DNA of 64,000 bases from a virus. The notes beneath the pieces are model-generated. The model was given only the letters and a program-made list of their open reading frames with translations, made no database searches and had not been told where the DNA came from. This document shows positions 49,462 to 64,000 of the stretch, one piece after another. The first letter of the stretch is position 1. Each line of letters starts with the position of its first letter. The stretch covers positions 31,418 to 95,417 of the IMG/VR virus record IMGVR_UViG_3300025929_000001, one strand, 5' to 3'. The translations under genes and the position numbers were made by a program.

Positions 49462-49470
49462 TGCTGTCTC

Positions 49471-49746: not shown

Positions 49747-49767
49747 TGATCATTGCTCCTAAAAAGT

Positions 49768-49796
49768 AAAAACCCCGGCAAACATCACCGGGGCTT
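49768..49796 (-). terminator. Intrinsic terminator
   Basis: GCCCCGGUGA-ugu-UUGCCGGGGU-UUUU on the - strand. Confidence 0.75.
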
Positions 49797-49814
49797 ATGG
49801 GACGCTGTTAAGCG

Positions 49815-50330
49815 TTAAGATTGCTGGCCTTGCTTGGCAAGCTCGTCGAACTTTTCCGCAATCACACCTTGCAGACCATCGTAGCAGCCGTCGACATACT
49901 CGGCGGTTTGGATGCCTTGGTCAGCTTGGCCGCCAGCGACGTCGATTTCGCGGAACAGGATTGCAGCCAGTGCAAGCTGGGCGATGCCGGCTTCCATTAT
50001 CTGGTTTGCAAAGAACATGCGTGCATCCTGTCCTTGCGCCGGTTGGGCCGCTTGTTGTGTCGCTTGGGTTTGCGCTGGCGCGGTTTGAGCTTGTTGCGCA
50101 ACGGCTGCGCCACCCTGCTCCCCGCCAAGGGTTTCAGCGAGGTCGCCGTTGCTTTGCTCATTCCCGTTCTGACCGCCGGTGTTCGTAACGTTACCGATGC
50201 GACCGTCGGTGGCCGGGTCAGTAACTCGACCACGACCATCGCTACCCTGATTGGTTTGCTTGGCCTGAGTGGGCTGTGCTGCGCCCTGGCGGGTTTGATT
50301 TGAACGACCGCGAGTGCCTGTTGTTGCCAT
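49815..50330 (-). CDS. Gln/Gly-rich low-complexity protein with a helical C-terminus
   Basis: AGGAGCAATATC-ATG at 50330; lies 37 nt downstream of the HH-B cleavage site. Confidence 0.7.
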   Translation of the reverse strand: MATTGTRGRSNQTRQGAAQPTQAKQTNQGSDGRGRVTDPATDGRIGNVTNTGGQNGNEQSNGDLAETLGGEQGGAAVAQQAQTAPAQTQATQQAAQPAQGQDARMFFANQIMEAGIAQLALAAILFREIDVAGGQADQGIQTAEYVDGCYDGLQGVIAEKFDELAKQGQQS

Positions 50331-50362
50331 GATATTGCTCCTATAAAGATGCGATGAAGTTA

Positions 50363-50438
50363 CCGCATACACAATAAGCCCGCGTGTAAGGCGAGCTATT
50401 GTGTTTCGTCCGAGAACCACTCGGACTCATCAGTGCGG
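50363..50438 (-). ncRNA. Type I hammerhead ribozyme HH-B (cleavage GUA| between 50368 and 50367)
   Basis: CCGCA-CUGAUGA-[GUCCGAG ugguu CUCGGAC]-GAAA-[CACAAUAGCUCGC cuuacac GCGGGCU u AUUGUG]-UA|UGCGG. Confidence 0.93.
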
Positions 50439-50439
50439 A

Positions 50440-51252
50440 TTACGCTGCGGGTGCAGGCTGTTCTGCTGCCGATTGTTCGGTAGCGGCTGCTGGCGCTTCT
50501 TGCCCTTCCGGGAGTTCGAAGTTACCAGCGGGGCCGAACCCGACCGTCCACACCGGCGCAGGCTGTTGAGCTTGCACTGGCGTTGGCAGAGCGACGCGAC
50601 CGCGAACACCGTGATATGCACGCCACCGAGCGTACTGCGTTTTGATGGTGTGGTCATTCATACCGCGGATACGGCTGTCTGCTTTGATCTCCGCAATGGT
50701 TGCCGGCGTCGTTCCCGGATGCGACTTGCTGATCTCGTCCGCAACATCCCAGACCGTACCGGTCAGCGTACCAGACGCGGGGCGGGTGATGTTGTTGCGG
50801 GTCAGCTTAGCTGGCCGCGGAGGTTGTGGGGCCTGGCCTTGCAGCAGTTGGGTGACTGCGTTCGGGTCGGAGATGCCCAGTTCCTTAGCGACGTTGGCGG
50901 CTGCTTCTTCCATTTTTTGCTTGAACTCGGCAGCGACCTGTTCCGGAGTGCGATGCAGCGGGTCGGCACCATCGGGTACCACTGGAGCGGCGAGATGCTG
51001 CGCGACGAAGGCGTGCGCTTGGTCCGGCTGGATTGCGCGGCGTTCTTCGCGTTCGCGCCGTTCCTGGGCGATAACTTCTGGCGGCAGGTCGGATGCGGCC
51101 TGGTCGTTGGTGTTCGTGGTGTCTTGGGCACCTTGCAGCTTGAGCTCGTCTGCGTGCTGCTTGTCTTCAGCAGACATAACCTTGGATGCGATGGGCTTAG
51201 CAGCGACGGATTTACGACCTTTTGGTGCGACGTGGGATTGAACGTTTGCCAT
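50440..51252 (-). CDS. Protein with the paralogous helical domain, flanked by two hammerheads
   Basis: NNITRP.SG..TG.VW.VAD...T.KTQYARW; AGGAGCAATATC-ATG. Confidence 0.8.
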   Translation of the reverse strand: MANVQSHVAPKGRKSVAAKPIASKVMSAEDKQHADELKLQGAQDTTNTNDQAASDLPPEVIAQERREREERRAIQPDQAHAFVAQHLAAPVVPDGADPLHRTPEQVAAEFKQKMEEAAANVAKELGISDPNAVTQLLQGQAPQPPRPAKLTRNNITRPASGTLTGTVWDVADEISKSHPGTTPATIAEIKADSRIRGMNDHTIKTQYARWRAYHGVRGRVALPTPVQAQQPAPVWTVGFGPAGNFELPEGQEAPAAATEQSAAEQPAPAA

Positions 51253-51378
51253 GATATTGCTCCTATGATGAACTGCGGTTGGTGCTGGAAGGTTCCAGCT
51301 GGCTTAACTATATAACAATTTTGCGGTAGCGGTTGGCGTTTAAACAAACTTTCGCTAGCTTGCTGATAGGCCACCTTT

Positions 51379-51443
51379 ACTGCTGACGTAGACCTTAAGT
51401 GTCTGGGTCTACGTTTCGGATCATTAATCCTCATCAGAGCAGT
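51379..51443 (-). ncRNA. Type I hammerhead ribozyme HH-C (cleavage GUC| between 51385 and 51384)
   Basis: ACUGCU-CUGAUGA-[GGAU uaaug AUCC]-GAAA-[CGUAGACC cagacacuuaa GGUCUACG]-UC|AGCAGU. Confidence 0.94.
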
Positions 51444-51444
51444 T

Positions 51445-51726
51445 CTATGAATGAAACTCGTACTCGGCTTTCGGGGCACGCTGAATGCATCCCATAGTCA
51501 GGCGGAAGTCTGTGTGATAGCGGATGTTAATGATCCACTCCAGCCACCCTGGATGCTTGTAAGCAGGCGCATCTGCGGGGACGCGCTCTTGCGGGTAGAT
51601 GTCTATAAGCTTCGCGCATTTGACGTGCTGCGCTACGCGAGCTAAGACAGCTTCCAGCATCTGCTGATCCAGTTCCCAACCGAGAACGTTGTGAATGTTA
51701 ATCTGGCAGGTTTTATCTTGACTCAT
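51445..51726 (-). CDS. Hypothetical protein
   Basis: AGGAG RBS; the TAG stop lies 1 nt before HH-C stem I. Confidence 0.65.
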   Translation of the reverse strand: MSQDKTCQINIHNVLGWELDQQMLEAVLARVAQHVKCAKLIDIYPQERVPADAPAYKHPGWLEWIINIRYHTDFRLTMGCIQRAPKAEYEFHS

Positions 51727-51803
51727 GGCATTGCTCCTAAGTTGGGTTGAACTAGCTGCTAAACGCACGCTTATATTAGCAGCGTTTAACAGCTTTGGGC
51801 GTT

Positions 51804-52076
51804 TTACTTTGGGACGTACAAAAGTTCGACAGTGTACGCAGTTAGAGGCCGGTTCGGCAGACCGTCGAGCCTGGTCGGATGCGTATTGCTCACGGCGCGG
51901 TATGCGTCCATCGCTACGACCATATTGTCGTACTTCAGGGCTTCATCCGGGTTCTCGGTAAAGGTGATGGTACCCATACCGTCGTTCCCGTCTGGATCGT
52001 AGCTGGCCACATACATCCCGCGTTCGGGACACGGTGAGCCAATTGCCGCACCTACAATCTTAATTACAGTTGACAT
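51804..52076 (-). CDS. Hypothetical protein (PTR.DG.PNRPLTA motif)
   Basis: AGGAG RBS. Confidence 0.65.
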   Translation of the reverse strand: MSTVIKIVGAAIGSPCPERGMYVASYDPDGNDGMGTITFTENPDEALKYDNMVVAMDAYRAVSNTHPTRLDGLPNRPLTAYTVELLYVPK

Positions 52077-52086
52077 GTTGTTGCTC

Positions 52087-52272
52087 CTAAGGTTGCTTGG
52101 CGTTGTGCCATTCCACCCCGCGAAGGAAACCTTCATACAGGGTATTGATGCGAGTCGCTGGTACATTGTGTGAGCCCGCATAAGCGTGAACGTACATCCT
52201 ACCGTTCCAGACATAACGGGTCATGTCGATGTGGCACATGCGCTCAAATGCTTCACGCAATTTCTCGTTCAC
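52087..52272 (-). CDS. Hypothetical protein
   Basis: AAGGAG RBS; GTGA overlap. Confidence 0.55.
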   Translation of the reverse strand: MNEKLREAFERMCHIDMTRYVWNGRMYVHAYAGSHNVPATRINTLYEGFLRGVEWHNAKQP

Positions 52273-52484
52273 ATGTTCTCCTTTCTTAATTCATCGTAAG
52301 CGAGGTCGAGAATGCTTTGTGCCTTATCAATAGACCGCGCCATACGCCTAACAATTTCCTTATTGCGATCAGCCATTTCCTTGTCTGCTTGCAACAAGGC
52401 TATACCCGACGTAATAACGTTCATCTGCGTGCGGATGTCGTGGTTCATTTTATTAAACTTCTCGAATGCTTCTGGTGACATCAT
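52269..52484 (-). CDS. Small helical protein (weak HisKA-like H-box)
   Basis: NHDIRTQMNVI..GI.LL; GGAGG RBS. Confidence 0.55.
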   Translation of the reverse strand: MMSPEAFEKFNKMNHDIRTQMNVITSGIALLQADKEMADRNKEIVRRMARSIDKAQSILDLAYDELRKENM

Positions 52485-52499
52485 TTATCCTCCAGGGTT

Positions 52500-52562
52500 A
52501 CTCCAAAGCGGAGTCCATAGCCTGCTGACCTGTATGTGGTCACCAAGCTATGAAATTGCTTT
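52500..52562 (-). promoter_or_regulatory. RNase III-like processing stem with a switchable 5' hairpin
   Basis: AAAGC..[CAUAGCUUG-UGACC/GGUCA-CAGGCUAUG]..GCUUU; alternative hairpin ACUCC-GCUUU-GGAGU. Confidence 0.65.
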
Positions 52563-52809
52563 AGCTATTGTCTGCGGGTTTCCGTGCACGCAAGATTGTC
52601 AATTGCGATTCGCAATAGGCAATATAATCAGCATGCGGCGCTTTGGGTTTAAGGTTGAACTCTTTAGCCAAACGCGGCCGCAATGCACCACCGCTTGACT
52701 TAAGACCGACTTGTTCGAGCTTGAGTTGTTGCTTAATTGACGCGAACCGGAAATAGGAAACAGCATCCGGCGTATCCGCGATAAATGCTTTCTCTTGTTG
52801 GCTGCTCAT
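52561..52809 (-). CDS. Hypothetical protein
   Basis: AAGGAG RBS. Confidence 0.6.
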   Translation of the reverse strand: MSSQQEKAFIADTPDAVSYFRFASIKQQLKLEQVGLKSSGGALRPRLAKEFNLKPKAPHADYIAYCESQLTILRARKPADNS

Positions 52810-53081
52810 TGCGGGTTCTCCTTTTTGACAAGAACATCGGTAAGTACTTCGGACAACATCTTGTGAAGCGCTTGCGCCTTAAGCGCTTCGAACAGTGTGT
52901 GGCAGACAAACATGACCTCCGCTTTGTTGAGATCATATTTGTCGACCAACATGTTGTTCACTTCGCGAACGATGTTGCCAAGTTCGTCGTCAGACTTCTC
53001 GAACAGTTTAGCCAGCTTACCGTTTTCATCCCGCGTGCGGTTAGGGTCGCGTGGCTCTTTTGCTTTTAATGTATCGGACAC
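52806..53081 (-). CDS. Hypothetical protein
   Basis: AGGAG RBS; GTG start. Confidence 0.6.
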   Translation of the reverse strand: MSDTLKAKEPRDPNRTRDENGKLAKLFEKSDDELGNIVREVNNMLVDKYDLNKAEVMFVCHTLFEALKAQALHKMLSEVLTDVLVKKENPQ

Positions 53082-53113
53082 GTTCTTGCTCCTAAGTTAG
53101 TGGTTGTATTGAA

Positions 53114-53452
53114 TTAATGCAGAGTTGGCCGGTCAGCTAGCACTTCCGTCAGTGCGTCGTGCCGCGCTTCTTGTTGGGTCATTTCTGCATTGTACTCCTC
53201 GTGCGTATCGGCTAAGAACCCTTCGCTGGTGTAGTTGACACCGAGTTCATCCGTTGGGATGTTCTGGAAACAACCGAACAGCGGGGAGTTCGTAAAAAGC
53301 TGACCGTTAGGCCCTGGCTTTGCTGCCCAATACGGTTCCCAGAAATTGTCCGGGTTGTCGTCGAACTTGTCCTCGTTAAACAAGATCAACAAACCGCGAT
53401 CCAGAGCAGCTTTTGCCCAGGCCATTTGGTCTGTGTAGCGATGGATTGCCAT
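53114..53452 (-). CDS. Hypothetical protein (paralog of 60353..60700)
   Basis: AGGAG RBS; shared residue pattern. Confidence 0.65.
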   Translation of the reverse strand: MAIHRYTDQMAWAKAALDRGLLILFNEDKFDDNPDNFWEPYWAAKPGPNGQLFTNSPLFGCFQNIPTDELGVNYTSEGFLADTHEEYNAEMTQQEARHDALTEVLADRPTLH

Positions 53453-53467
53453 TTTGTTGTGCTCCTA

Positions 53468-53496
53468 AAAATGGGCTGACCATACAGCGCCAGCCC
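53468..53496 (-). terminator. Possible weak terminator hairpin
   Basis: GGGCUGGC-gcuguaug-GUCAGCCC-AUUUUU. Confidence 0.45.
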
Positions 53497-53507
53497 GTGG
53501 TTGATAC

Positions 53508-53837
53508 TTAGCAATTCACATAGTGTACCGGGCTGCGCACTACCAGATCCTCTGGCAGCTTAATGCCAACCAGCGGCAGATAGGCACGCGGCTTACGACC
53601 GAAGAAGTCAACCCTGCGGTGCGGTTCGAACTCCGCGGTTGCGATTTCATCCACTCGGCGCACCTCGACGATGGTACCGTCGCTGTCCCGTCCGATAATG
53701 TAATCGGGCAGTCCTTTCTTGACGCGCTTGTCCCGGCTGAACGGGTTAGCGACCCATGATTGCTGAACGCGCCCTGTTTGGTACACGTTAACAATGATGC
53801 AGCGCTGGCTAAGTAAATCACTTAATAGCTTAGGCAT
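53508..53837 (-). CDS. Hypothetical protein
   Basis: GGAG RBS. Confidence 0.6.
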   Translation of the reverse strand: MPKLLSDLLSQRCIIVNVYQTGRVQQSWVANPFSRDKRVKKGLPDYIIGRDSDGTIVEVRRVDEIATAEFEPHRRVDFFGRKPRAYLPLVGIKLPEDLVVRSPVHYVNC

Positions 53838-53854
53838 AATAAATACTCCGGTTA

Positions 53855-53919
53855 CGGGCAAAGCGCCCGCGATAACCACACTGGTGAGTTGTGGATTGTG
53901 TGGTTATCACTGGTGCTTT
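53855..53919 (-). promoter_or_regulatory. RNase III-like processing stem with a switchable 5' hairpin
   Basis: AAAGC-acca-[GUGAUAACCACAC/GUGUGGUUAUCGC]-gggc-GCUUU; alternative hairpin CGGGC-GCUUU-GCCCG. Confidence 0.7.
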
Positions 53920-53922
53920 AGG

Positions 53923-54522
53923 TCAGATTTGACCTTTGTATTCTACTTCCCAAATTTCTGCCATGCGAGTTGCTACTTGGTAACAGAAATCTTGCTCGCT
54001 GAAACCGTAGATAGTGTCGTGCGGATTATTGCGCAAACTAGACAGGTATCCTGCGTAGAAGTCGACGTCGCTGAAGCTATTCTTAGCAGCGTCCTGTTCT
54101 TGGGTAATGCGCTTGACAATAAAGAACTTCAGATATTGCTGCGCGTTGTGTTCGACTTCAACCAGATGGCTTAATTGGCGCTGCACTTGCTCGGAGACAG
54201 CGCTGGCAAACTGCATACCATCGCCGCTCATAAGCTCATTGTGCACCCATGTTTCGTGATACTGGCTGGTTGGTCCGATGTGTTCTGGGTTGCCTTTGCA
54301 TTCCGCCCATTGTTTGGCAGACAACCATTCCGCGGTTGCTTCGACCATGCGCTCGTAAGCAGCTTCGACCGGGTCCATGTCTTCAGTTCGTTTGGAATCG
54401 TCCACTTGGCAGTACCCTGGAATGAATTGGGCTGCTGTTTCTACCATAGCAGCCATGACAGCTTTGTCTTCCTTAGTTGGGATTGGAGATACTTTGAAAG
54501 GACGCTTTTTGTTGTCAGACAT
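53923..54522 (-). CDS. Hypothetical protein
   Basis: AGGAGCAATATC-ATG. Confidence 0.65.
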   Translation of the reverse strand: MSDNKKRPFKVSPIPTKEDKAVMAAMVETAAQFIPGYCQVDDSKRTEDMDPVEAAYERMVEATAEWLSAKQWAECKGNPEHIGPTSQYHETWVHNELMSGDGMQFASAVSEQVQRQLSHLVEVEHNAQQYLKFFIVKRITQEQDAAKNSFSDVDFYAGYLSSLRNNPHDTIYGFSEQDFCYQVATRMAEIWEVEYKGQI

Positions 54523-54708
54523 GATATTGCTCCTGAGGTGAAATGCATCTGTTGGATGCGGTTGGGTAAATGCGTATTGTACTGCTAAACGTGCGTTTAT
54601 GGTGCACATTTAAACGCGTTTTAAGCGCTTAAATGCATTTTTGCGGGGAGGGTATAGGGTACCCGCTAAAAACGCAGGCAACATGCGTTGCCCACGGTTT
54701 AAACGGTA

Positions 54709-55200
54709 TTAATAGCGCGTGCCCCGGTACCAATCCGGGTAACACACAAATTCCCCTGCATCATTGCGCCCTGTCTCGCGGATGCGGTCAGCTTCGTTCT
54801 CCGCACGCAGACGTTCTGCTGCACGCTTGTCGTTGCTACGAATCTTCCCTGACCCTTCGCAGGTGTAGCAGGTCTTATCGTACCCGCCGTTGAAATACAT
54901 TTCGCGGGACTCCTCGTCGTCAAAGGCTTCGTAGAATTCAGACTGCGTGTAGCTGCCCAGATGCCTGCAGTGGTGCCCGTCCCCTGAACAGGTTGGGCAG
55001 ATAACCCAACCGCCGCGCACTTCAGACTCTGCGGGTGAGAACTCACCACAATCGCACCCTGCCTCGGTTTCGTGGCAGTTAATGCAGATCGTTGAGGCAG
55101 ATTTGGGTGCGGAGAAGCTTTCGCACTCGCAGTAGACTTCAGGTTCGCGGCAGACTGTGCATTTTGGCAGGGAATCTGGATCAATTTGATTGTAGCGCAT
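54709..55200 (-). CDS. Cys-rich Zn-finger protein (two CxxC..CxC units plus a DnaJ-type CxxCxGxG pair)
   Basis: CTVC..CEC, CINC..CDC, CPTCSGDG and CYTCEGSG motifs. Confidence 0.7.
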   Translation of the reverse strand: MRYNQIDPDSLPKCTVCREPEVYCECESFSAPKSASTICINCHETEAGCDCGEFSPAESEVRGGWVICPTCSGDGHHCRHLGSYTQSEFYEAFDDEESREMYFNGGYDKTCYTCEGSGKIRSNDKRAAERLRAENEADRIRETGRNDAGEFVCYPDWYRGTRY

Positions 55201-55222
55201 GGTAAGGCTCCTAAAGTGAAAT

Positions 55223-55276
55223 GATGCAGAACGCATCCAAATGCCCGCTGTTGCCAGTGAGCATTTAGGGTGTTCT
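55223..55276 (-). promoter_or_regulatory. RNase III-like processing stem with a switchable 5' hairpin
   Basis: AGAAC..[AAAUGCUC/GGGCAUUU]..GUUCU; alternative hairpin GAUGC-GUUCU-GCAUC. Confidence 0.65.
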
Positions 55277-55682
55277 AGTTCATGTTTTTGAGATACAGCA
55301 CAAAGTCGACCTGAAACTTAAACAAGCCGATCATTTCCGCAGGGCTGTACCCTTCAGAATCTTCCATGTCCATGTATTCCAACAAGGCTTGCTTAACCTT
55401 ATCTGCTGGCATTGCTTCTATCTCAGATAAGAATTCCTTATCGGTCATGGGTACGAATTCAGGAACGAACTTGTGTTCCTCGACCATTTCGTCACTGCGA
55501 TCTTCTAGCCAGTGTGCAAACTCACAGGCCCAACCTTCTAATTCTTCTTCGGGCACCATAATTTGCAGCGAATTACCAAATTGCTCGAACTGCCCATCAT
55601 CCATGCGGTTGTCGAGAAACAGTTCAGCTTGCTTAGAGCCTTGAACAAACAGGAAATCGCTGAGGTTGCGTAGTGTGGTCAT
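55275..55682 (-). CDS. Acidic hypothetical protein
   Basis: AGGAG RBS; very Asp/Glu-rich. Confidence 0.65.
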   Translation of the reverse strand: MTTLRNLSDFLFVQGSKQAELFLDNRMDDGQFEQFGNSLQIMVPEEELEGWACEFAHWLEDRSDEMVEEHKFVPEFVPMTDKEFLSEIEAMPADKVKQALLEYMDMEDSEGYSPAEMIGLFKFQVDFVLYLKNMN

Positions 55683-55705
55683 TTATTGCTCCTAAAATGG
55701 GTGAT

Positions 55706-55758
55706 GGTGCAAAGTGCACCCACTAGCCTACTCAGGGAGAAGGCTAGGAGGTTACTTT
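55706..55758 (-). promoter_or_regulatory. RNase III-like processing stem with a switchable 5' hairpin
   Basis: AAAGU..[CUAGCCU/AGGCUAG]..ACUUU; alternative hairpin GGUGC-ACUUU-GCACC. Confidence 0.65.
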
Positions 55759-55764
55759 ACGTTG

Positions 55765-56223
55765 TTAAATGATGCCGTAAGTGATGCTGTGGGCGTGACC
55801 GTCCTCGAAAGCTTCCAGGGTGCGATCGCGGGAACGGTATTGGATATCGTTTGCTACGGATGGGCGTTCCAGACTGAAGTAGCATGGCCCGTCTGCCCAG
55901 TTGAGTGTGTGGTCGATGTGGGCTTGCACAGCTTCCTTAGTTGCATCGACGATGCGAACCTTCCCTGCGTACTGCACACCATCGCAATCCATACCGGATT
56001 CGAGAACGGCGATTTTGCCATCCTCAGCGAGTGCGGTAAGGTCGCGCAGAAATTGGATCCGCTGCTGGCGTGCTTCCCGGGCTGACCACAATGCGTGATC
56101 GTGGACTTGGCGGTGCGCCTTGAGGATATAAGAATCCAGAAAGCGGTAGTCCTCCGGAACCACTGCGTTGCGAATCATTGGGGAGGTGGCTTTCCAGTAC
56201 AGCGAAGGTGTGATGGATTTCAT
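55765..56223 (-). CDS. Hypothetical protein (SGMDCDG / SRDR.LEAFEDGH motifs)
   Basis: AGGAGCCTTACC-ATG. Confidence 0.7.
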   Translation of the reverse strand: MKSITPSLYWKATSPMIRNAVVPEDYRFLDSYILKAHRQVHDHALWSAREARQQRIQFLRDLTALAEDGKIAVLESGMDCDGVQYAGKVRIVDATKEAVQAHIDHTLNWADGPCYFSLERPSVANDIQYRSRDRTLEAFEDGHAHSITYGII

Positions 56224-56246
56224 GGTAAGGCTCCTAAAAGGGTTAC

Positions 56247-56319
56247 GCTGCGGATTGTAGATTGCAGCCACTAACCTGCTCGTAATGAAAGGGGGTGAAC
56301 AGGTTAGTAGATGTATCTA
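56247..56319 (-). promoter_or_regulatory. RNase III-like processing stem
   Basis: UAGAU..[ACUAACCUGUUC/GAGCAGGUUAGU]..AUCUA; alternative hairpin GCUGC-N12-GCAGC. Confidence 0.6.
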
Positions 56320-56325
56320 AGTTAG

Positions 56326-56580
56326 TTACTCGTCTTTTGGAGTTAAATGCTCCAGGTAAATGGGCACCATGTATTCCTGAAGCATTAGGCGCAGCTTTTG
56401 CTCTGCGACTTGGAGGGCTTCAGACAGGGTGTCGAAGGAAAGTACCTGATGCAGTTCACCGACTAGGGTGCTGACTTTGTATGTTGTAGTGTCGTCTGTG
56501 AGATTAAACTCGGTCAGGCTTACCAAGAGGTTAGATGCTGCATTGTTGTACTGGAAGTACAGATGGTTGGTTGTTTTCAA
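56326..56580 (-). CDS. Hypothetical protein
   Basis: AGGAG RBS; TTG start. Confidence 0.55.
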   Translation of the reverse strand: MKTTNHLYFQYNNAASNLLVSLTEFNLTDDTTTYKVSTLVGELHQVLSFDTLSEALQVAEQKLRLMLQEYMVPIYLEHLTPKDE

Positions 56581-56678
56581 GTCAAGCTCCTAAGAAGGTG
56601 ATGCGGTGGTGGTGCAACTGGTATTGTACTGCATAATGTGCGTGCAGTATATGCTTGCAGTTGGGTAAGTGATATGCC

Positions 56679-56930
56679 TTACTCCAATACAACCGTGATA
56701 CCTGCTTGTTCGAGAACGTTGCGCAGGAGGTTGGTGACTGCTGGAGCATAAAATTGCCGGTTGGCTTCCACGACAGATATGTGGTTAGTTTCCCATTCCT
56801 CTGCTGCAACAGGATACGCAGACAAGCTAATTGCATCCTCGTCAGTGAAAAGGTAGACGGTAGGCTTAGCCGGGGTCTGGTCTGTACGACGACCGGTTGG
56901 GAAAGGCCAGGAAGTAGGTTTGTCGGACAT
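56679..56930 (-). CDS. Hypothetical protein
   Basis: AAGGA RBS. Confidence 0.6.
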   Translation of the reverse strand: MSDKPTSWPFPTGRRTDQTPAKPTVYLFTDEDAISLSAYPVAAEEWETNHISVVEANRQFYAPAVTNLLRNVLEQAGITVVLE

Positions 56931-56939
56931 TTGGGTTCC

Positions 56940-57176
56940 TTATGCTTGTGGTAAGTTGAAAAGCTCGATGTCGGTGTAGTTACCATCGGCATCTTTGAGT
57001 GCAAGAGTAAGCTTTGCCTGGTCTTGTTGAATTGCGTATTCGTACAAGCGAAGCGCATTGCGGATCACCTCTGTGTACGAAGTAGCTTCGCTCGCTTGCT
57101 TAATCCATTCCAAGCGCCGATAGCTATTTTCTGGTATCTTGAGCTTGAACTCGCGTGTTGGTTCTTTTTTAAGCAT
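56940..57176 (-). CDS. Ribbon-helix-helix-like DNA-binding protein
   Basis: F.LKIP..SY.RLE.IK....S.TEVIRNALRLYE. Confidence 0.65.
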   Translation of the reverse strand: MLKKEPTREFKLKIPENSYRRLEWIKQASEATSYTEVIRNALRLYEYAIQQDQAKLTLALKDADGNYTDIELFNLPQA

Positions 57177-57196
57177 GATATTGCTCCTATGGTGTA

Positions 57197-57251
57197 GATG
57201 CAAAGCGCATCGTATAGCCTATGTTTTGGGATAGGCTATGGGCTGAGCTTT
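57197..57251 (-). promoter_or_regulatory. RNase III-like processing stem with a switchable 5' hairpin
   Basis: AAAGCUCA-gccc-[AUAGCCUAU/AUAGGCUAU]-acga-UGCGCUUU; alternative hairpin GAUGC-GCUUU-GCAUC. Confidence 0.72.
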
Positions 57252-57257
57252 GGAGGG

Positions 57258-57776
57258 TTAAGATTCGTGCGGGTCGGCGGGGATTGGATAATCAGCGACC
57301 AGTTGTATTTGCCGTTTAATTCGTGCTAGGGCTAATTCCTTATCGCTGATGCTGGAACCGTATGTGGCGAATAGGTTGTTGTCCAATGTGCCGTTACCAC
57401 GCATATCGAACAGACGCGCCCAAGCACGCGGGCCGAAGAAGCGATTTAACCACACGTAGTGGCCGGGAGCGTCTAGTTCGTATTGCGTGAGGTTGGCGGG
57501 TTCGACCGGGTACCATTGCCCTTCACCTTTCCATTCCTTAAGTGCGAAACCCAAGTCTTGGAAATGCGGGACTAGGGTAAGTTCGCCAAAGGCGCAGTAG
57601 TGAGCGCCGCATGGGTTGCGTTCGGTTGGCTGAACTGAGCCAGGTTGCATGTAATGGCGCAGATTGAGTTCTTCCTCGGGAACCAGTGCGATGGCTTTGT
57701 AAGCCTTGTGCAGGTTGTCCAGGATGAAAGGTGTGTGGTAATAGTTGTCGTCGGTGATTGTTGGCATTGTAGGCAT
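57258..57776 (-). CDS. Hypothetical protein
   Basis: AGGAG RBS; CG..YCAFG motif. Confidence 0.65.
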   Translation of the reverse strand: MPTMPTITDDNYYHTPFILDNLHKAYKAIALVPEEELNLRHYMQPGSVQPTERNPCGAHYCAFGELTLVPHFQDLGFALKEWKGEGQWYPVEPANLTQYELDAPGHYVWLNRFFGPRAWARLFDMRGNGTLDNNLFATYGSSISDKELALARIKRQIQLVADYPIPADPHES

Positions 57777-57800
57777 GGTTAAGGCTCCTGAGTTGGTGAG

Positions 57801-57853
57801 GATGCAAAGCGCATCTGGTTACTCCCTTAGTAGGAAGTAACGGGCTGAGCTTT
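57801..57853 (-). promoter_or_regulatory. RNase III-like processing stem with a switchable 5' hairpin
   Basis: AAAGCUCA-gccc-[GUUACUUCC/GGGAGUAAC]-caga-UGCGCUUU; same flanks as 57197 but a different upper stem. Confidence 0.72.
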
Positions 57854-57913
57854 ATACGAAATAATGCACTGCGGGGAATAGGCAATGCATTATGGGCGGG
57901 GCTTTATGGATGG

Positions 57914-58153
57914 TTATTGGAAACTGCCGAGCAATTGTTGAGCTAAGGCCATGTTTAAGATTTCTATACAATCGGCAATGTCGTAGAGTTGCGATTCAAC
58001 GCCGGTTTCGAGATTGAGGACACGGAACAGCGGGTTCGCAAAGCAAGGTGCCATATAGGAGGCTATGGTGTCGACGATGCAATAATGCTGCTTGCGGTAC
58101 ATAACGCGGCGACCGCCGATGATTGTATCTTCGTTGGGTGTTTGGGCTGGCAT
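57914..58153 (-). CDS. Hypothetical protein
   Basis: GGAGGAG RBS. Confidence 0.6.
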   Translation of the reverse strand: MPAQTPNEDTIIGGRRVMYRKQHYCIVDTIASYMAPCFANPLFRVLNLETGVESQLYDIADCIEILNMALAQQLLGSFQ

Positions 58154-58154
58154 G

Positions 58155-58430
58155 TTAAGGCTCCTCCATTGTTGGTACGGAAGCAGACGCAGCAACTGCA
58201 TCTGCACGCTTAATAAACTTTTTCATATCCAGCCAAGAGTAGGTATAAACTGGCGGATATATTTGCTGCTTGTGATAACGGTTGGCATATCGCATCGCTC
58301 CAGCTTGCGTCAGGAATGCATAAAGCTTTCCCTTAACTTCCACACAGTAGAGCGGACGTCCCTTTTGAGCACAGGTCCGAGGCACAATTTGCTTCATATT
58401 GCTCGGCCAGATAAATGGAGGCTTTGCCAT
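58155..58430 (-). CDS. Hypothetical protein
   Basis: In-chain ORF. Confidence 0.5.
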   Translation of the reverse strand: MAKPPFIWPSNMKQIVPRTCAQKGRPLYCVEVKGKLYAFLTQAGAMRYANRYHKQQIYPPVYTYSWLDMKKFIKRADAVAASASVPTMEEP

Positions 58431-58432
58431 GG

Positions 58433-59317
58433 TTATTGGTTTTGGAGCTGAGCAAGGTAGTTCATCCGCCAATTGCATGTTTGGGCGACGTAGTCTTGCA
58501 ACTGGACGAGATCATGCTGTTCCTTAAGCACCCAAGAATCCCATGTGAGGCCGAAAGGCTTAATGGACTCGAGAAACATCGGGTGCGGTACGGAATGCAT
58601 AAACTTCAGCGCTTGTTGCTTAGCAGCTTCGACCTGCTCGTCCCGATGACGGTTGGTGTAGGCAATTTCATCCCGAATCTTGTCGAAATGGGTGGCCACA
58701 CCGTCTTGGGTTATGAGTTCTTGGAAATCGGTGTATTGATTTTGATCCAAGCGCTGTATGAGATCGAGAGTTCCTTGCGCGAACGTTTTGGGCATCTCAG
58801 GCGGTAGGCCTTTAACCGGTGGCTCACCAATTTTGCGATTGGCGTTAGCGACCTGGGCTTTTGTGACTGTGCGCCGTGAATGCTGATACGTTTTGTCGTA
58901 ATCGATAAGCGCAGGGATGTCAAGGATACTACGCTGCCAAGGTAAATCTTGGATAGGTAGCGGTTGCTCGAGATATGTGCAGTATTCGATGAGCCGTTCG
59001 CGTTGGAAGTCGTCCAGGACGTAGTTGGTTACGATGTCCATAATGTTCTGGTCGCTTAAATGTGCGAAGGACAGCAGTTGAGAAACTACGATACCATCGT
59101 CGCCCTTGAACATAAAGGCGAGATCCACATAATTGGAAGGCTTCGCAATATTCCAACTGTTGTCTACCGGGTTGAAGCATCGATACACATAACGTTGTCC
59201 ATACGCAGACTTACTTTCGATCCAACTAAGCATAGTTGTGAACCGACCAAACACGTAAGGGAAGCGTTCATTACTGTACGCGTTACTTTCAGAATCGTAA
59301 TTTAATAGTTGTAGCAT
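58433..59317 (-). CDS. Hypothetical protein (294 aa)
   Basis: GGAG RBS; long ORF. Confidence 0.7.
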   Translation of the reverse strand: MLQLLNYDSESNAYSNERFPYVFGRFTTMLSWIESKSAYGQRYVYRCFNPVDNSWNIAKPSNYVDLAFMFKGDDGIVVSQLLSFAHLSDQNIMDIVTNYVLDDFQRERLIEYCTYLEQPLPIQDLPWQRSILDIPALIDYDKTYQHSRRTVTKAQVANANRKIGEPPVKGLPPEMPKTFAQGTLDLIQRLDQNQYTDFQELITQDGVATHFDKIRDEIAYTNRHRDEQVEAAKQQALKFMHSVPHPMFLESIKPFGLTWDSWVLKEQHDLVQLQDYVAQTCNWRMNYLAQLQNQ

Positions 59318-59319
59318 GG

Positions 59320-59880
59320 ATGTGACTCCGGTTGGTTGTGCTGCGTTGAAAACTTAATTGTACAGGTAGATTAGTTGGATATGCTAGTGGGTTATATGTA
59401 GGCCGGGTACTTAATTTGTGGTCGGGAGGGTAATATAATAGTGAAGCGCTGCGTTAGCAAACTAAGCCGCACATACAATATAAAAAATACTTTTTTACCC
59501 TACGGCCCCACCTCCCTACCCTAAAATTGAACAAACCCATTACTAATCATACTAAACCTGTATATTCACTACTATTTTACCTATATAAACACCCTTTTTA
59601 TCATCATTAGCATGCTAGTACAGTTTTAAACAGCATCTGCACTCCTGATAGAGATTTTTATATACCAAGGGTGGGTACCCAAAATCCTGAGCAGGTAAAA
59701 TTAGTACTATCGCGGCATAGTTTCTGCCGAGAATTAGTGACCAACCCTACCTACCCTAAAAATGCAGTCAACTAAGGGGTCTGTCACACCCCTTAAGTAA
59801 TGCATTCAACTCTTTTTATAGCCTCCCTGCCCAAATAATAGTGATAAAACACACTATGGCGAGCAAGAGAGCGATATGCA
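59320..59880. other. ~560-bp AT-rich non-coding region (origin/control region candidate)
   Basis: No ORF of 60 aa or more; strand-skewed CTACCCTAAA repeats; motifs shared with 63.7 kb; two hairpins at 59760-59875. Confidence 0.5.
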
Positions 59881-59883
59881 TGA

Positions 59884-60141
59884 TTATCCAACCTTCCTTA
59901 TGTCGTCCAGCCAGGATTCCATAGCATTACGGAACACAAGCAAGTCAAATAATATGGCTTCGTGACCCTGAACCAGCGTCCCTGCTCCAGAAAAATTGAC
60001 AGCAGTCACGTCCACATGGTGACGAAACGCGGGATTGTCCAGAATACGGTACAAATGCTCCGCATATTGTTCAGCGCGGTCCAGATCGGCTTCGAAACTA
60101 GCACTGTCGTAAACAGCCGACTCGTTGGATTGTGTGGTCAT
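59884..60141 (-). CDS. Hypothetical protein
   Basis: AAGGAG RBS. Confidence 0.6.
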   Translation of the reverse strand: MTTQSNESAVYDSASFEADLDRAEQYAEHLYRILDNPAFRHHVDVTAVNFSGAGTLVQGHEAILFDLLVFRNAMESWLDDIRKVG

Positions 60142-60352
60142 CTTAATCTCCTTAACGGTTTAAACGGGTTTTAAGCGCTTTAAATGCAAAGCTAGGGTTA
60201 GGTACCAGCTACCCGTTAAAAACAGCGTAGCGGTACCGCAAAACGCGTGCTATGGGGTTGATTTAATGCGCTTTAAAACCCTTAATACCGGGCGAAAGTA
60301 CCCGACACTAACCGCACCATTCGAGATAGTGTGGTTAGTAGCTGATCCTTTC

Positions 60353-60700
60353 TTAACCGCCCATGCGATTATTACGGGCGTCTTCTTCGTACTCGGCAGC
60401 TTGCCATGAGTCGTACGCTTCCTTAGTCTGGAACAGGTAGCCAACCCAATCGTGATCGTCGTCACTTTGTGGGTCAGGGCGCCATTCGCAACGCCACACC
60501 CCTACCACATCGCATTCTGAACGGCGCCAGTTGGTCTTGGGGTCGATTGCGAAGCATGGGTCCCACATATCGTCGCTAGATGGACCATTCTCGACATCTG
60601 CATACATGAAGGTTTCAAACCCTGCCGCAATCACGGCGGCTTTCCAAGTCTTGAAATCGTGATAGGTGCTTGTAACAATCATTGAGCTGAGGGGCATCAT
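60353..60700 (-). CDS. Hypothetical protein (paralog of 53114..53452)
   Basis: AAGGAG RBS. Confidence 0.65.
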   Translation of the reverse strand: MMPLSSMIVTSTYHDFKTWKAAVIAAGFETFMYADVENGPSSDDMWDPCFAIDPKTNWRRSECDVVGVWRCEWRPDPQSDDDHDWVGYLFQTKEAYDSWQAAEYEEDARNNRMGG

Positions 60701-60702
60701 AA

Positions 60703-61011
60703 TTACTCCTTAATGTAAGAACCGACGATTGCGCAGCCCGGATGTGCATTGCGAGCAGCTTCTTCAGCATCCGCTTGCAGACCGAAGTAACCATACTCGA
60801 ATTGCCCATCGCCAGCGCGTTCGACGAGGACTGCCCATTCGCGATGCGGCTCCTCATACGGGCGAACGTTAACCGATTCGGTCACGTTATTCAGGTAGGA
60901 CAGATAGTGCAAATCGCCTTCCTTAATGCCGCGCTGGATCGCATGCCCAAACAGCTCTTCGCTGACATGGTTGCCAACCGTTATTTCAACTACGAAAGTC
61001 TTACTTGCCAT
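60703..61011 (-). CDS. Hypothetical protein
   Basis: AAGGAG RBS. Confidence 0.65.
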   Translation of the reverse strand: MASKTFVVEITVGNHVSEELFGHAIQRGIKEGDLHYLSYLNNVTESVNVRPYEEPHREWAVLVERAGDGQFEYGYFGLQADAEEAARNAHPGCAIVGSYIKE

Positions 61012-61032
61012 GATGTATTTCTCCTTAGTTGT

Positions 61033-61088
61033 GCTTCGAGAGTGAAGCCAATAGCCAACTCGTTGGAGAAGGCTATTAAATTACTCTC
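61033..61088 (-). promoter_or_regulatory. RNase III-like processing stem with a switchable 5' hairpin
   Basis: GAGAGU..[AAUAGCC/GGCUAUU]..ACUCUC; alternative hairpin GCUUC-ACUCUC-GAAGC. Confidence 0.65.
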
Positions 61089-61352
61089 TTATTTACACTT
61101 GTGCTGGAACAGACGCCCTGCGGACATTTCCCTAGAGCATCCAGGGCAGATTGCACGGACACGGTGGAATTCCTTACGCTCGCGTGCATCTTCGAGACTG
61201 CGAACGTAAATGAATACGCCTTGCACCATGCGCATCGGTAGACCGCCAGCAGGCCATTTAGCCTTAGGATCCAGACCCATAAGAATTTTCATTCCTGAGT
61301 CGTGAACGTTGCGCTTATGTTCTGGCCAGCGAGGGTCAATGATTTTATACAT
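61089..61352 (-). CDS. Small Zn-binding hypothetical protein
   Basis: HRV...CP.C....SAGRL.QH.CK; AAGGAG RBS. Confidence 0.65.
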   Translation of the reverse strand: MYKIIDPRWPEHKRNVHDSGMKILMGLDPKAKWPAGGLPMRMVQGVFIYVRSLEDARERKEFHRVRAICPGCSREMSAGRLFQHKCK

Positions 61353-61379
61353 GTGCGGACTCCTTATTTGTGAGTGTGG

Positions 61380-61694
61380 TTAATGAAGGTGCTTATCGCT
61401 AGGCACGTCAGGAATAAAGCCCATCATCTTCTGGAGCTTGGTGTTAAATTCCAGCGCCAGCTGACGATATTGCTCGGGCGTGACTTCCATCTTAGCGCAG
61501 ATTTCAGAATTGTCGCACTCGTCACAGAGTGCAATATGTTCCGTTTCGTTACCAATAGCGTCCATCACCATCGCGAACACAACCGCAGGATTTTCAGCCT
61601 GGAGAATCATGTTCGCGATGCCGGTAAACGCCTCGGCAATAAACTGCGCCACCCTTAGTTCTTCCTGCGACAGAGGTTGCTTTTCGTCGTTCAT
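61380..61694 (-). CDS. Hypothetical protein
   Basis: AAGGAG RBS. Confidence 0.6.
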   Translation of the reverse strand: MNDEKQPLSQEELRVAQFIAEAFTGIANMILQAENPAVVFAMVMDAIGNETEHIALCDECDNSEICAKMEVTPEQYRQLALEFNTKLQKMMGFIPDVPSDKHLH

Positions 61695-61873
61695 GCTTGT
61701 GGCTCCTTATCCTGAGCAACTGCTTGAGTCATGAAGTTACGAATTGCTTCCGTGGTCGTGACACCCCGACGAATACAGAGCGCGTTAAATTCGTCACGAA
61801 GCTTAAGCGGGACCCGAATCGTTACCGGGCCCATATCCTCCTTGGGAGGCTTAGGTGCGAATACGTCAAACAT
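61691..61873 (-). CDS. Ribbon-helix-helix (CopG/Arc-like) protein
   Basis: VTIRVP..LRDEF..LC..RGVT.TEAIRNFM. Confidence 0.7.
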   Translation of the reverse strand: MFDVFAPKPPKEDMGPVTIRVPLKLRDEFNALCIRRGVTTTEAIRNFMTQAVAQDKEPQA

Positions 61874-61942
61874 GATAGTTACCTTTTGGAAAACCGGACA
61901 AGGCGTCCGCATAAGGGCCACGAAGACCCTTAAACTGAAACC

Positions 61943-62161
61943 TTATTCTTCTGGATCATCTCCAGAATCTTCATCTTCCCCTTGCAGCTCGCGAATCCAG
62001 CAAGCCTTAGCTTCAATCCCATAACTTTCGAGAACGAAGGCCGGATCCATATTTAAGGTCTGGACCATGTGCTGCATATCGTGAACTTCAGACTCCGCAT
62101 CGTCAATATTCGTGAAATCGGTAATTTGAGTCATTTCTTGCGCGAGGGAGATATTGGACAT
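61943..62161 (-). CDS. Small acidic protein
   Basis: AAGGAG RBS; D/E-rich. Confidence 0.6.
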   Translation of the reverse strand: MSNISLAQEMTQITDFTNIDDAESEVHDMQHMVQTLNMDPAFVLESYGIEAKACWIRELQGEDEDSGDDPEE

Positions 62162-62189
62162 TTCGAGACTCCTTAATTAGTGTGGTTAA

Positions 62190-62242
62190 CGGGCAAGCCG
62201 CCCGACTAAGGACTCCCGAGGGAATCCTTAAGCTGAAGGCTT
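62190..62242 (-). promoter_or_regulatory. RNase III-like processing stem with a switchable 5' hairpin
   Basis: AAGCC..[UAAGGAUUCC cucg GGAGUCCUUA]..GGCUU; alternative hairpin CGGGC-GGCUU-GCCCG. Confidence 0.68.
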
Positions 62243-62244
62243 AA

Positions 62245-62376
62245 TTACGGTCGTCGTGAGCACATGTGAAATCCAGACCCTGCCAGGGTGTCCCAGATGC
62301 GCTGTGCGTCGTACAGATTGTGTAGAACCGCGTGCTCGTAGCGATGATCGCTATTCCTGAACCAAATTGTGAACAT
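62245..62376 (-). CDS. 43-aa hypothetical protein not in the ORF track
   Basis: AGGAGCTTACC-ATG; MFTIWFRNSDHRYEHAVLHNLYDAQRIWDTLAGSGFHMCSRRP. Confidence 0.65.
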   Translation of the reverse strand: MFTIWFRNSDHRYEHAVLHNLYDAQRIWDTLAGSGFHMCSRRP

Positions 62377-62416
62377 GGTAAGCTCCTAAAATCGAGAATT
62401 GATTAGTTAGTCAGGA

Positions 62417-62623
62417 TTATGCTTCGACCTCGGCGGTAAGTTCACCGAAGTAAAGCGCTCCATGGACAATCGCCGCAAGAATGTGGTAGGCAATCACAGC
62501 CCACACAATGCCGCGATAAATCAACCCATAGTTGCCCAGTTCCATTATTGCCACTTGGTCAAAGGCCGCGAGCAGGAATGCGGTCAGGGTCGCGAACGTA
62601 AACTTGGTGAGGGACTTGATCAT
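62417..62623 (-). CDS. Small two-TM membrane protein
   Basis: AGGAGAAATACC-ATG; two hydrophobic helices. Confidence 0.65.
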   Translation of the reverse strand: MIKSLTKFTFATLTAFLLAAFDQVAIMELGNYGLIYRGIVWAVIAYHILAAIVHGALYFGELTAEVEA

Positions 62624-62652
62624 GGTATTTCTCCTAGTGAATGGATTGTTTG

Positions 62653-62714
62653 GTACTGCGGGTACTTCTTGGAGGCCACTAACCGTTATAGTGAGTGACC
62701 TCTAAGAAATACCC
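62653..62714 (-). promoter_or_regulatory. Long RNase III-like stem
   Basis: GGGUAUUUCUU-a-GAGGUCACU...AGUGGCCUC-c-AAGAAGUACCC (~20 bp), preceded by a CCAGGCC-GCAA-GGCCUGG hairpin. Confidence 0.65.
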
Positions 62715-62744
62715 AGGCCTTGCGGCCTGGATACTTGCTGCTAG

Positions 62745-63308
62745 TTAAGCCTTGCCTTGCTTAGCCAGCTGGAACTGCGTGGAAACAGTGGCCGGGTTGA
62801 TATAGTTGCTACCCGAGAAATGTTCCTTTACTTCCTTGCGGGTCATGGTCGGGTTTGCGTGCACGAACTCACGAACCCGCTTGCATGCGCCAGCGTTATT
62901 GCTTGGGGCGTTCTTTTGCTCCCCTGCCACTGCACGAACCGACATGGTATTGGGCACTGGCAATCCGTGCTGCGCAGCCAGGGCTTGCACTGCGGCCATG
63001 TATGCTGCTTGCTTGGCGTGCAATGTTGCCCCTTGGGACTGTTGCTTCAGCTCAGCGTTGCGACGTGCACGCAGCGTATTCCCAATCGCAGCGACGCGAT
63101 TTGCGCGGCGAACATAGTGCTCAGCGGAAAATTTCGCTGGTGCCACGACCTCTTCAACTACCGGGGTCGTCAGTTCTTGCTGCATTGGAACAGTGTGCTG
63201 CTCAGCCACAACAGTGTGCTGCTCTGCAACATCGTGCTGTTGGGCCACTTGCTGGGCGACAACTGCATTGTTGTTGCGGGAAGCTTTGGATTGTGCGGAT
63301 GCTTTCAT
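62745..63308 (-). CDS. First early gene, with a divergent C-terminal copy of the paralogous helical domain
   Basis: AGGAGAAATACC-ATG; GACKRV.E...RKEV...INPATVSTQF. Confidence 0.7.
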   Translation of the reverse strand: MKASAQSKASRNNNAVVAQQVAQQHDVAEQHTVVAEQHTVPMQQELTTPVVEEVVAPAKFSAEHYVRRANRVAAIGNTLRARRNAELKQQSQGATLHAKQAAYMAAVQALAAQHGLPVPNTMSVRAVAGEQKNAPSNNAGACKRVREFVHANPTMTRKEVKEHFSGSNYINPATVSTQFQLAKQGKA

Positions 63309-63696
63309 GGTATTTCTCCTAAGTAAGTGTTGGTCATTGGCAACATGCTGCACTATTGCAACATGCTCCCAAATGCCGCCTGTCACGCGGACACTTGCTG
63401 GCCTACCTGCTACTAACGCCCGTGCTATAGGGCAACAGTTTACGGTCAGTAAGGTTTCCATGCGCCAAGAGAGTTATCTTGTCCTACCCTTTGTTCCCAC
63501 TAGGCCAATAAAGGCTATAGCTTCCCGGGGGCAAGTCGTAACGCATGTTGCACTGTAGTAACAGCGCGAGCTAGATTTTTAAAGAACATCCCCCTCGCCC
63601 GGGTGCGATGTGCACCTGGACCGTACCACAGGACCGCGCGCGGGCAGCGCGACCCCCTACCACCTACCCCCTTGCTTGTTGTTTACCAATGACTAA

Positions 63697-63724
63697 AGTA
63701 TAGCACGTACTGCGCACCTTGCCA
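63697..63724 (-). promoter_or_regulatory. Early sigma70 promoter with extended -10 and an A-rich UP-like element
   Basis: TGGCAA-16-TATACT with TGn; A-tracts upstream. Confidence 0.6.
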
Positions 63725-63792
63725 GCCCCTTTTGCATGTTTTTATATTGTATGTTCCTATCAGCCTGATAGAGATTATATCTTGCATCTAGT

Positions 63793-63877
63793 CAACGTTG
63801 CCTGGTGGCATTGTTGCCTGGTCGCCACTGTTGCCTGGGTGCACTGTTTCTGTTCTGCAACGTTGCCTGGTCGCAAC
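63793..63877 (+). repeat. Five ~16-bp tandem repeats (CAxxGTTGCCTGGTxG)
   Basis: caacgttgcctggtgg / cattgttgcctggtcgc / cactgttgcctgggtg / cactgtttctgttctg / caacgttgcctggtcg. Confidence 0.8.
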
Positions 63878-64000
63878 CATTTCCGTAAGTAAACTTCCCG
63901 CAGTGCAACACAATGGGGTCCGGGCCATCTATACTAGGTAAGGATACCGACCTCCCCATCTGGCTTCTCCAACGCCAATACCGCAACACTAAACCCCCAC

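Follow-up and report, generated by a model that had tools for sequence, protein, structure and literature searches.

Repeated intercistronic RNA elements with two competing folds in a siphovirus operon, and their possible role in transcript processing

Layout of the intercistronic elements

The stretch of DNA analysed here, called the window throughout, comprises 64,000 nucleotides (nt) and forms the final 64 kb (positions 31,418 to 95,417) of the 95,417-bp virus record IMGVR_UViG_3300025929_000001, which carries direct terminal repeats. The virus is a siphovirus-type phage whose genes include those for a tape-measure protein, a DNA polymerase and a primase, the last being around 52% identical to its counterparts in Pseudomonas phage NP1 and Xanthomonas phage DoCa3 (Queuovirinae). 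From about 63.3 kb down to 45 kb every gene lies on the minus strand, and most are small orphans with strong Shine-Dalgarno (SD) sequences. Our findings therefore concern the minus-strand transcript, and the RNA words quoted below are the reverse complement of the window. Between these genes we describe a repeated RNA element that can adopt two mutually exclusive folds and that may serve as a site of transcript processing. PHROG scans of 20 early proteins flanking the elements returned no informative function.

Every minus-strand intergenic gap was folded and the copies were then dissected, giving eleven elements between 52.5 and 62.3 kb with one common layout (Table 1; copies are named by their lowest coordinate). 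Read from 5' to 3', each consists of L5 (5-7 nt, most often AAAGC), a few nt that are unpaired or pair only in part, an upper hairpin that varies between copies and has 9-17 base pairs (bp), a gap of 0-3 nt, H5 (5 nt), L3 (complementary to L5 and most often GCUUU), H3 (complementary to H5), a spacer rich in C and A, an SD sequence and the AUG. L3 can either pair with L5, giving a long fold, or stand as the loop of a small H5/H3 hairpin, giving a split fold. The C-G pair that closes the small hairpin is present in 18 of the 20 copies examined here and in other phages; it is the sole near-invariant feature, and the other positions vary with pairing kept.

An earlier reading, made from the sequence alone, had placed such stem-loops between a stop codon and the next ribosome-binding site (RBS), and this placement is borne out. 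The upstream stop codon overlaps the start of the element or precedes it by at most 6 nt in ten of the eleven window copies, the exception being 57801, and a short spacer leads into SD-AUG after all of them except 60289, whose distance to the next start is 148 nt. The eight hairpin words cited in that reading all occur where it put them. Its estimate of about ten copies was also right in number, although not in membership: nine of its ten sites share the layout, the site at 62653 is a different object, and the copies at 60289-60352 and 61895-61944 had been overlooked. The upper stems, which it described as unrelated in sequence, are indeed variable and paired, but four share an AUAGCC-type arm and two share an UAACCACAC-type arm. 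Its example of 57197 and 57801, with near-identical flanks around different upper stems (9 bp versus 10 bp), stands.

Table 1. Intercistronic elements of the window and the atypical first intergenic site
Feature	Position	Strand	Description
Canonical element	52500..52562	-	L5 AAAGC over stop codon; upper hairpin ~16 bp; ACUCC-GCUUU-GGAGU; covariance-model E 8.6e-7, outside the seed
Canonical element	53855..53919	-	L5 AAAGC 3 nt past stop; upper hairpin 12-13 bp with 16-nt loop; CGGGC-GCUUU-GCCCG
Canonical element	55223..55276	-	Lower stem AGAAC/GUUCU over UAG stop; GAUGC-GUUCU-GCAUC
Canonical element	55706..55758	-	Lower stem AAAGU/ACUUU; GGUGC-ACUUU-GCACC
Variant element	56247..56320	-	Lower stem UAGAU/AUCUA, its 3' strand in the 12-nt loop of GCUGC...GCAGC; upper hairpin 13 bp; E 3e-4
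Canonical element	57197..57251	-	AAAGC + UCAGCCC; upper hairpin 9 bp; GAUGC-GCUUU-GCAUC
Canonical element	57801..57853	-	Flanks near-identical to 57197; different 10-bp upper stem; only window copy far (58 nt) from a stop
Canonical element	60289..60352	-	Lower stem GAAAG/CUUUC adjoins stop; CGGG-loop-CCCG; weak, E 0.21
Canonical element	61033..61088	-	Lower stem GAGAGU/ACUCUC adjoins stop; GCUUC-ACUCUC-GAAGC
Canonical element	61895..61944	-	Lower stem AAGGU/GCCUU over stop; CGGAC-GCCUU-GUCCG; weak, E 0.19
Canonical element	62190..62242	-	Lower stem AAGCC/GGCUU; CGGGC-GGCUU-GCCCG; weak, E 0.37
Atypical first intergenic site	62653..62730	-	GC-rich hairpin, then near-perfect ~25-bp hairpin; only a 4-bp GUAC/GUAC alternative; no covariance-model match

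Covariation and competing folds

Since alignments made with MAFFT misplaced the stems, a covariance model was instead seeded from eight copies of equal length, and the copies were realigned with Infernal. Covariation was then scored on an Infernal alignment of 16 copies from five phages, with 500 shuffles and slid alignments as controls. Both the L5/L3 helix and the H5/H3 helix were paired in 100% of cells, and in each of them four of the five pairs were changed on both sides. The upper stem was paired in 89.8% of cells, with all ten of its pairs changed on both sides. None of the 500 shuffles reached the observed values, and the slid controls were 31-45% paired. The L5/L3 count is unfitted because this helix is absent from the model that made the alignment, whereas the other two helices were fitted in it. 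Four copies outside the alignment add the pair types AAGCC/GGCUU, AAGGU/GCCUU, GAAAG/CUUUC and UGGAUC/GAUCUA. The two mutually exclusive helices are thus kept by compensatory changes, as the sequence-only reading had proposed.

Judged from their geometry, L5/L3 and H5/H3 should be unable to coexist as a pseudoknot, which would be sterically excluded because there are no nt between L3 and H3. By constrained ensemble energies, the long fold is the more stable one in 18 of the 20 copies, with a margin of 3.0 ± 2.1 kcal/mol; within it, part or all of H5 pairs with the 5' strand of the internal loop as well. In the variant at 56247 the long fold has -26.2 and the split fold -27.0 kcal/mol. As the conserved small hairpin is disfavoured in the intact RNA, some event must remove or occupy the 5' half, and the candidates are a cut or a ribosome on the adjacent stop codon. 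Masking of the SD sequence by one of the folds was considered and rejected, SD-AUG being equally exposed in both (RBS accessibility 0.63 versus 0.63). As far as comparative sequence evidence reaches, the compensatory changes show, beyond any single predicted fold, that selection maintains a second helix, incompatible with the putative substrate helix, in at least five phage lineages.

The concentration of these structures in one part of the genome exceeds chance. A strict scan for hairpins of 5 bp with an exact complement of the loop 20-95 nt further upstream gave 8 matches in the element-bearing 10 kb of the minus strand; the remaining ~180 kb, counting both strands, gave 18. The covariance model built from eight copies, only two of which came from the window, retrieved five more window copies with expectation values (E) of 8e-7 to 2e-4. 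With a model designated R2, run on the window with filters off, the eight best matches were all minus-strand ones in the element region. The three copies that diverge most scored weakly (E 0.2-0.4), and nothing else in the window scored. When the covariance model was applied to the whole genome, the motif was found nowhere outside the element region.

The folds themselves are more stable than dinucleotide shuffles (z-scores of -3.0 to -6.4). Folding favours the sense strand over the antisense strand in 16 of the 20 copies (mean -3.2 kcal/mol, p 0.0015), with 41 G-U pairs in the folds of the sense strand. We therefore assign the structure to the mRNA, and not to the DNA or to an antisense RNA.

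Occurrence in other phages

IMG/VR was searched with an exact pattern composed of AAAGC, a gap and the GAUGC-GCUUU-GCAUC hairpin. This returned four contigs with the full layout, and further scans together with the model added four more. The contigs were found through a sequence word, so that their common AAAGC/GCGCUUUGC core is partly a matter of ascertainment. One of them (G003) is a true relative of the window phage, with structural proteins 45-86% identical; nearly all of its early genes are different, and three copies of the element are kept. The other contigs have no detectable proteins in common with the window phage, save for a 27%-identical polymerase in G002, and hold one to three copies each among small unknown or replication genes. 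Most of the copies in other phages also start at or near a stop codon, and PHROG scans of the genes flanking them were likewise uninformative.

Other searches delimit the motif. The covariance models did not find it in T7, in the Nipunavirus phages NP1 and DoCa3 or in four distant contigs recovered through the primase; a search for relatives through an early protein recovered none. A megablast search of the region against the phage collection gave nothing, and Rfam gave no match at E <= 1 in 50000-64000. Across 185,579 bacterial and archaeal genomes there were 74 matches, all at or below 28 bits, whereas true copies with GAUGC-GCUUU-GCAUC score about 53-61 bits with model R1; the 74 are chance word matches lacking the upper stem, and no host can be inferred from them. 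A broad pattern scan was mostly noise, with two true copies in 77 new loci among the matches listed.

The minus strand of G003 (L146) also carries long structured intergenic RNAs at 6090-6174, 6652-6844 and 4511-4666, which are unlike both the element and a hammerhead.

Hammerhead ribozymes in the same operon

Downstream of the elements, on the minus strand of the same operon, lie three hammerhead ribozymes (approximately 51444-51379, 50439-50363 and 48383-48293). Each starts at the upstream stop codon, and the slot they occupy is that of the elements: stop codon, structured RNA, spacer and SD-AUG. When 47500-52600 was scanned separately against Rfam at E <= 10, two of the three were recovered, which indicates that the tool works; their long stems account for the weak scores (E 1.4-5.4) and for the missed third. 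Two further hammerheads are present in G003.

In phages, hammerhead arrays are believed to divide long transcripts into mRNAs of one gene each (Perreault et al. 2011, PMC3088659). With the cut site deduced from the ribozyme core, four of the five hammerheads (three here and two in G003) give a 3' product that opens with a hairpin, positioned at +1 or +2 and with energies of -4.1 to -8.4 kcal/mol; in the window, two of the three leave the hairpin at +1. This hairpin is built from the 3' strand of stem I and excludes the active ribozyme fold. The hammerheads appear to do the same job as the elements by means of RNA catalysis and, by analogy, the elements look like the protein-dependent counterpart of a cut-then-cap module.

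A proposed cut-and-refold model

RNase III sites have been a familiar feature of the gaps between phage early genes ever since T7. In the predicted long fold the elements have 16-23 bp (mean 18.9), and each of the 20 predicted folds is interrupted (1x1 to 4x4) just under the upper stem. H5 starts 12.3 ± 1.7 nt past the apical loop and 0-3 nt past the upper stem. As predicted, then, the long fold offers about two helical turns with 11 bp or more to one side of the target, and an internal loop, bulge or mismatch at the target itself, as is expected of an RNase III site. Substrates of the Escherichia coli enzyme typically have two helical turns (~20-22 bp) and need the distal box to be about 11 bp away from the cut; the enzyme cuts one strand at internal loops or mismatches, leaving a protective 3' hairpin (PMC3867540, PMC1540722). 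The lack of conserved nt outside the helices and the lack of an Rfam match also fit an enzyme that reads shape.

Based on this geometry, on the covariation and on analogy, our preferred reading, which we put forward tentatively, is that the elements are intercistronic processing modules of long early and middle transcripts, acted on by an RNase III-type cut and subsequent refolding. Prediction and covariation show that the intact RNA forms one interrupted helix of about 19 bp, the lower half pairing L5 and the 5' internal-loop strand with H5 and L3 and the upper half being the variable hairpin. A double-strand-specific host endonuclease, most likely RNase III, would make a single cut on the 3' side, where the helix beneath the upper stem is broken by a mismatch or internal loop, and probably at, or a few nt from, the start of H5. 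Left with the upper hairpin at its 3' end, the upstream mRNA would be shielded from exonucleases. In the downstream mRNA the liberated H3 would invade and pair with H5, displacing the upstream fragment, and L3 would come to form the loop of a hairpin of 5 bp at the newly made 5' end, presumably 15-29 nt ahead of the AUG.

A new 5'-monophosphate end normally invites RNase E, and to our knowledge there is so far no general answer as to the fate of such an end after an RNase III cut. The refolded hairpin may hide it from 5'-end-dependent decay, and a long early message would in this way be turned into single-gene pieces with folded 5' ends. The structural premises of the cut-and-refold idea, which the sequence-only reading had already proposed, hold (covariation, a long-fold ground state, an RNase III-like shape, the position of H5 and the hammerhead parallel), and the idea as a whole is partly supported; cleavage, enzyme, cut position and stabilising effect are what we infer from them. 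If confirmed, the model would describe a compact and portable design by which one transcript yields separately stable messages, which would be of use in building synthetic operons, and would supply a rule by which processing sites can be located in the genomes of uncultured phages. The elements also supply a defined RNA motif that is absent from Rfam.

Several points weigh against this interpretation. The phage encodes no RNase III, and a host enzyme must be assumed. The lower half of the long fold is short and irregular, and three copies have only 16-17 bp in total. The sites of T7 lack a systematic refolding hairpin, with only R1.1 and perhaps R0.5 offering one, which leaves the model without a proven precedent, and the cultured relatives NP1 and DoCa3 lack the motif. 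Copies within the same genome are paralogues, meaning that the covariation counts overstate the number of independent events. Lastly, a ribosome at the adjacent stop codon could free the same strand with no cut at all.

Relation to known systems

Like the elements, the RNase III signals of T7 (R0.3, R0.5, R1, R1.1, R1.3 and the late sites) are repeated and intercistronic, and lie in a polycistronic early transcript. The classical T7 cut positions, which we take to be those that reproduce the UUUAU↓GAU junctions, fall 12-13 nt past the loop. A 3'-side cut about 12-13 nt past the apical loop, leaving a 3' hairpin on the upstream mRNA, is what we predict for the elements. Both kinds of site have an upper hairpin, an interruption and a lower stem adding up to about two helical turns (PMC3867540, PMC1540722), and the upper stem-loop product of R1.1 is 28 nt long (PMC1540722). 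There is, however, no sequence homology between them: models R1 and R2 find nothing in T7, whose sites have their own consensus, CCUUUAU↓GAU. The lower stem is also shorter in the elements, and their cleavage is a prediction. Furthermore, the elements have a covarying small hairpin that competes with the lower stem, whereas T7 sites as a rule have none. This added, selected refolding hairpin is the new part in comparison with T7-type intercistronic RNase III signals. In our literature search we met no account of phage RNase III sites at which processing triggers the folding of a 5' hairpin, although older journals were thinly covered and this is weak evidence of absence.

Stem-loops of the ompA type, located at the 5' terminus, stabilise bacterial mRNA. 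The elements share with them a small hairpin at or near the 5' end, a single-stranded spacer and an RBS, but the element hairpin would form only after processing, its loop and 5' arm being otherwise held in the long fold. Promoter-early stem-loops of the T4 type carry a promoter and act partly through DNA recombination. Those cassettes resemble the elements as short repeated intergenic modules with standardised flanks between small orphan early genes, whereas the elements have no promoter consensus and the evidence points to RNA. Finally, the clustered hammerheads of phages and prophages (PMC3088659) correspond to the elements in slot, in operon, in the proposed production of single-gene mRNAs and in a 3'-product hairpin that excludes the pre-cleavage fold. 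They differ in their invariant catalytic core and known cut site; the elements have no core and would need a protein enzyme.

Alternative explanations

The elements might never be cut and could instead act as punctuation. The upper hairpin would then be a 3'-exonuclease barrier or insulator and the small hairpin an ordinary element of the 5' untranslated region, with RNase E cutting the spacer if anything does, and the overlap of the two helices would be incidental or would tune the kinetics of folding. Such a role would agree with the stable hairpins found directly after the stop codons (-10 to -23 kcal/mol for the upper stems), with the C/A-rich unstructured spacers past H3 and with the standardised SD-AUG blocks, which suggest copied regulatory cassettes. 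We nevertheless find it doubtful, as it leaves unexplained both the constant distance from apical loop to H5 and the compensatory L5/L3 pairing that is present in every copy and excludes an equally conserved hairpin.

A ribosome-operated switch, in which translation and not cleavage is the trigger, appears somewhat less likely again. A terminating ribosome would unzip the lower half and H5-L3 would snap into the small hairpin, reporting or exploiting upstream translation, for example by gating the access of a nuclease. L5 together with the 5' internal-loop strand spans 7-15 nt, about the length of RNA that a ribosome covers beyond its A site. The closeness of stop codons to L5 in all but one window copy and in most copies from other phages, and a difference of only ~3 kcal/mol between the folds, are also what such a switch would need. 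On the other hand, RBS accessibility is equal in the two folds, leaving no obvious output; copy 57801 is 58 nt from a stop and 60289 is 148 nt from the next start; and the hammerheads adjoin stop codons too, so that this closeness may just reflect compact spacers. An extension of the same thought, which we rate as more unlikely still, would make the whole set two-state, ribosome-operated devices in which both cutting and downstream capping depend on upstream translation, the RNase III-type modules and the hammerheads being interchangeable "cut" parts placed before a common "cap" hairpin.

It is improbable that the elements function at the level of DNA, as attC-like or T4-type promoter-stem-loop recombination sites marking mobile single-gene cassettes in a variable early region. 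The flanking orphan genes do differ even in G003 while the element is kept, and 57197 and 57801 do share their flanks. However, the complete genome contains no tyrosine recombinase (PF00589) and no integrase was found in it, the folding is strand-asymmetric (the sense strand folding better, with G-U pairs, in 16 of 20 copies), words resembling an R-box after H3 are inconsistent, and the competing second hairpin has no role in attC. Recombination between the repeats could be a by-product.

We attach very little weight to a new class of self-cleaving ribozyme, a side idea of the sequence-only reading. The neighbourhood invites it, with three hammerheads in the same transcription unit and two in G003, and Weinberg et al. 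reportedly found new ribozyme classes through such a neighbourhood in 2015. The elements have no conserved core, with no invariant nt beyond the closing C-G pair (itself in 18 of 20 copies); their helices, on geometric grounds, should not coexist as a pseudoknot; and no Rfam ribozyme family matches at E <= 1. Neither a family match nor a catalytic core was found for the known classes (hammerhead, twister, twister-sister, pistol, hatchet and HDV-like). It is equally implausible that the elements are only intrinsic terminators or attenuators grading transcription along the operon, for although they are stem-loops past stop codons and a consensus scan weakly flags 55237-55223, no U-tract follows the upper stem or the small hairpin in copies other than 55223, and the terminator-like sites of the region number 22 against 17.9 ± 4.1 in shuffles, that is, the chance expectation. 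Mimicry of tRNA or of an RNase P substrate was rejected, as ARAGORN gave no match.

Further features of the region

The atypical site at 62653 is plausibly a double-stranded RNA substrate outside the element family, as judged from its modelled fold. The apical part of its 25-bp hairpin (62675-62700, minus strand) holds CACTCACTATAACGG, in which 12 of 15 bases match the T7 promoter core. This likeness is probably a coincidence because there is no RNA polymerase among the scanned large proteins of the window, although the genome itself was not searched for one. Between the stop codon and element 57801, at 57857-57905 on the minus strand, lies an extra 12-bp hairpin followed by UUUCGU, which looks like a weak terminator.

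Two AT-rich non-coding stretches (59318-59883 and 63400-64000) stand at the head of the two clusters of elements and are likely to be early promoter regions; a sigma-70 consensus scan showed no enrichment in either. The start regions at several sites in 52072-63323 are standardised in two forms, UAGGAGCAAUAUCAUG and UAGGAGCCUUACCAUG, and it seems that entire intergenic cassettes, beyond the hairpins alone, have been copied.

The longer intergenic gaps contain a non-coding repeat, TTTAAACG.GTTTTAAGCGCTT.AAA, and ACGCACGTTTAGCAG on the minus strand. It occurs at 54609-54633 and 60159-60183, with related words in 48180-48300, 51727-51803 and 51253-51370, and could be a phage-specific promoter or operator set that partitions the region into separate transcription units. 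Only one intrinsic terminator in the region is clear: at 49770-49796 on the minus strand, between the second and third hammerheads, a GC-rich stem of 12 bp leads into a U-run.

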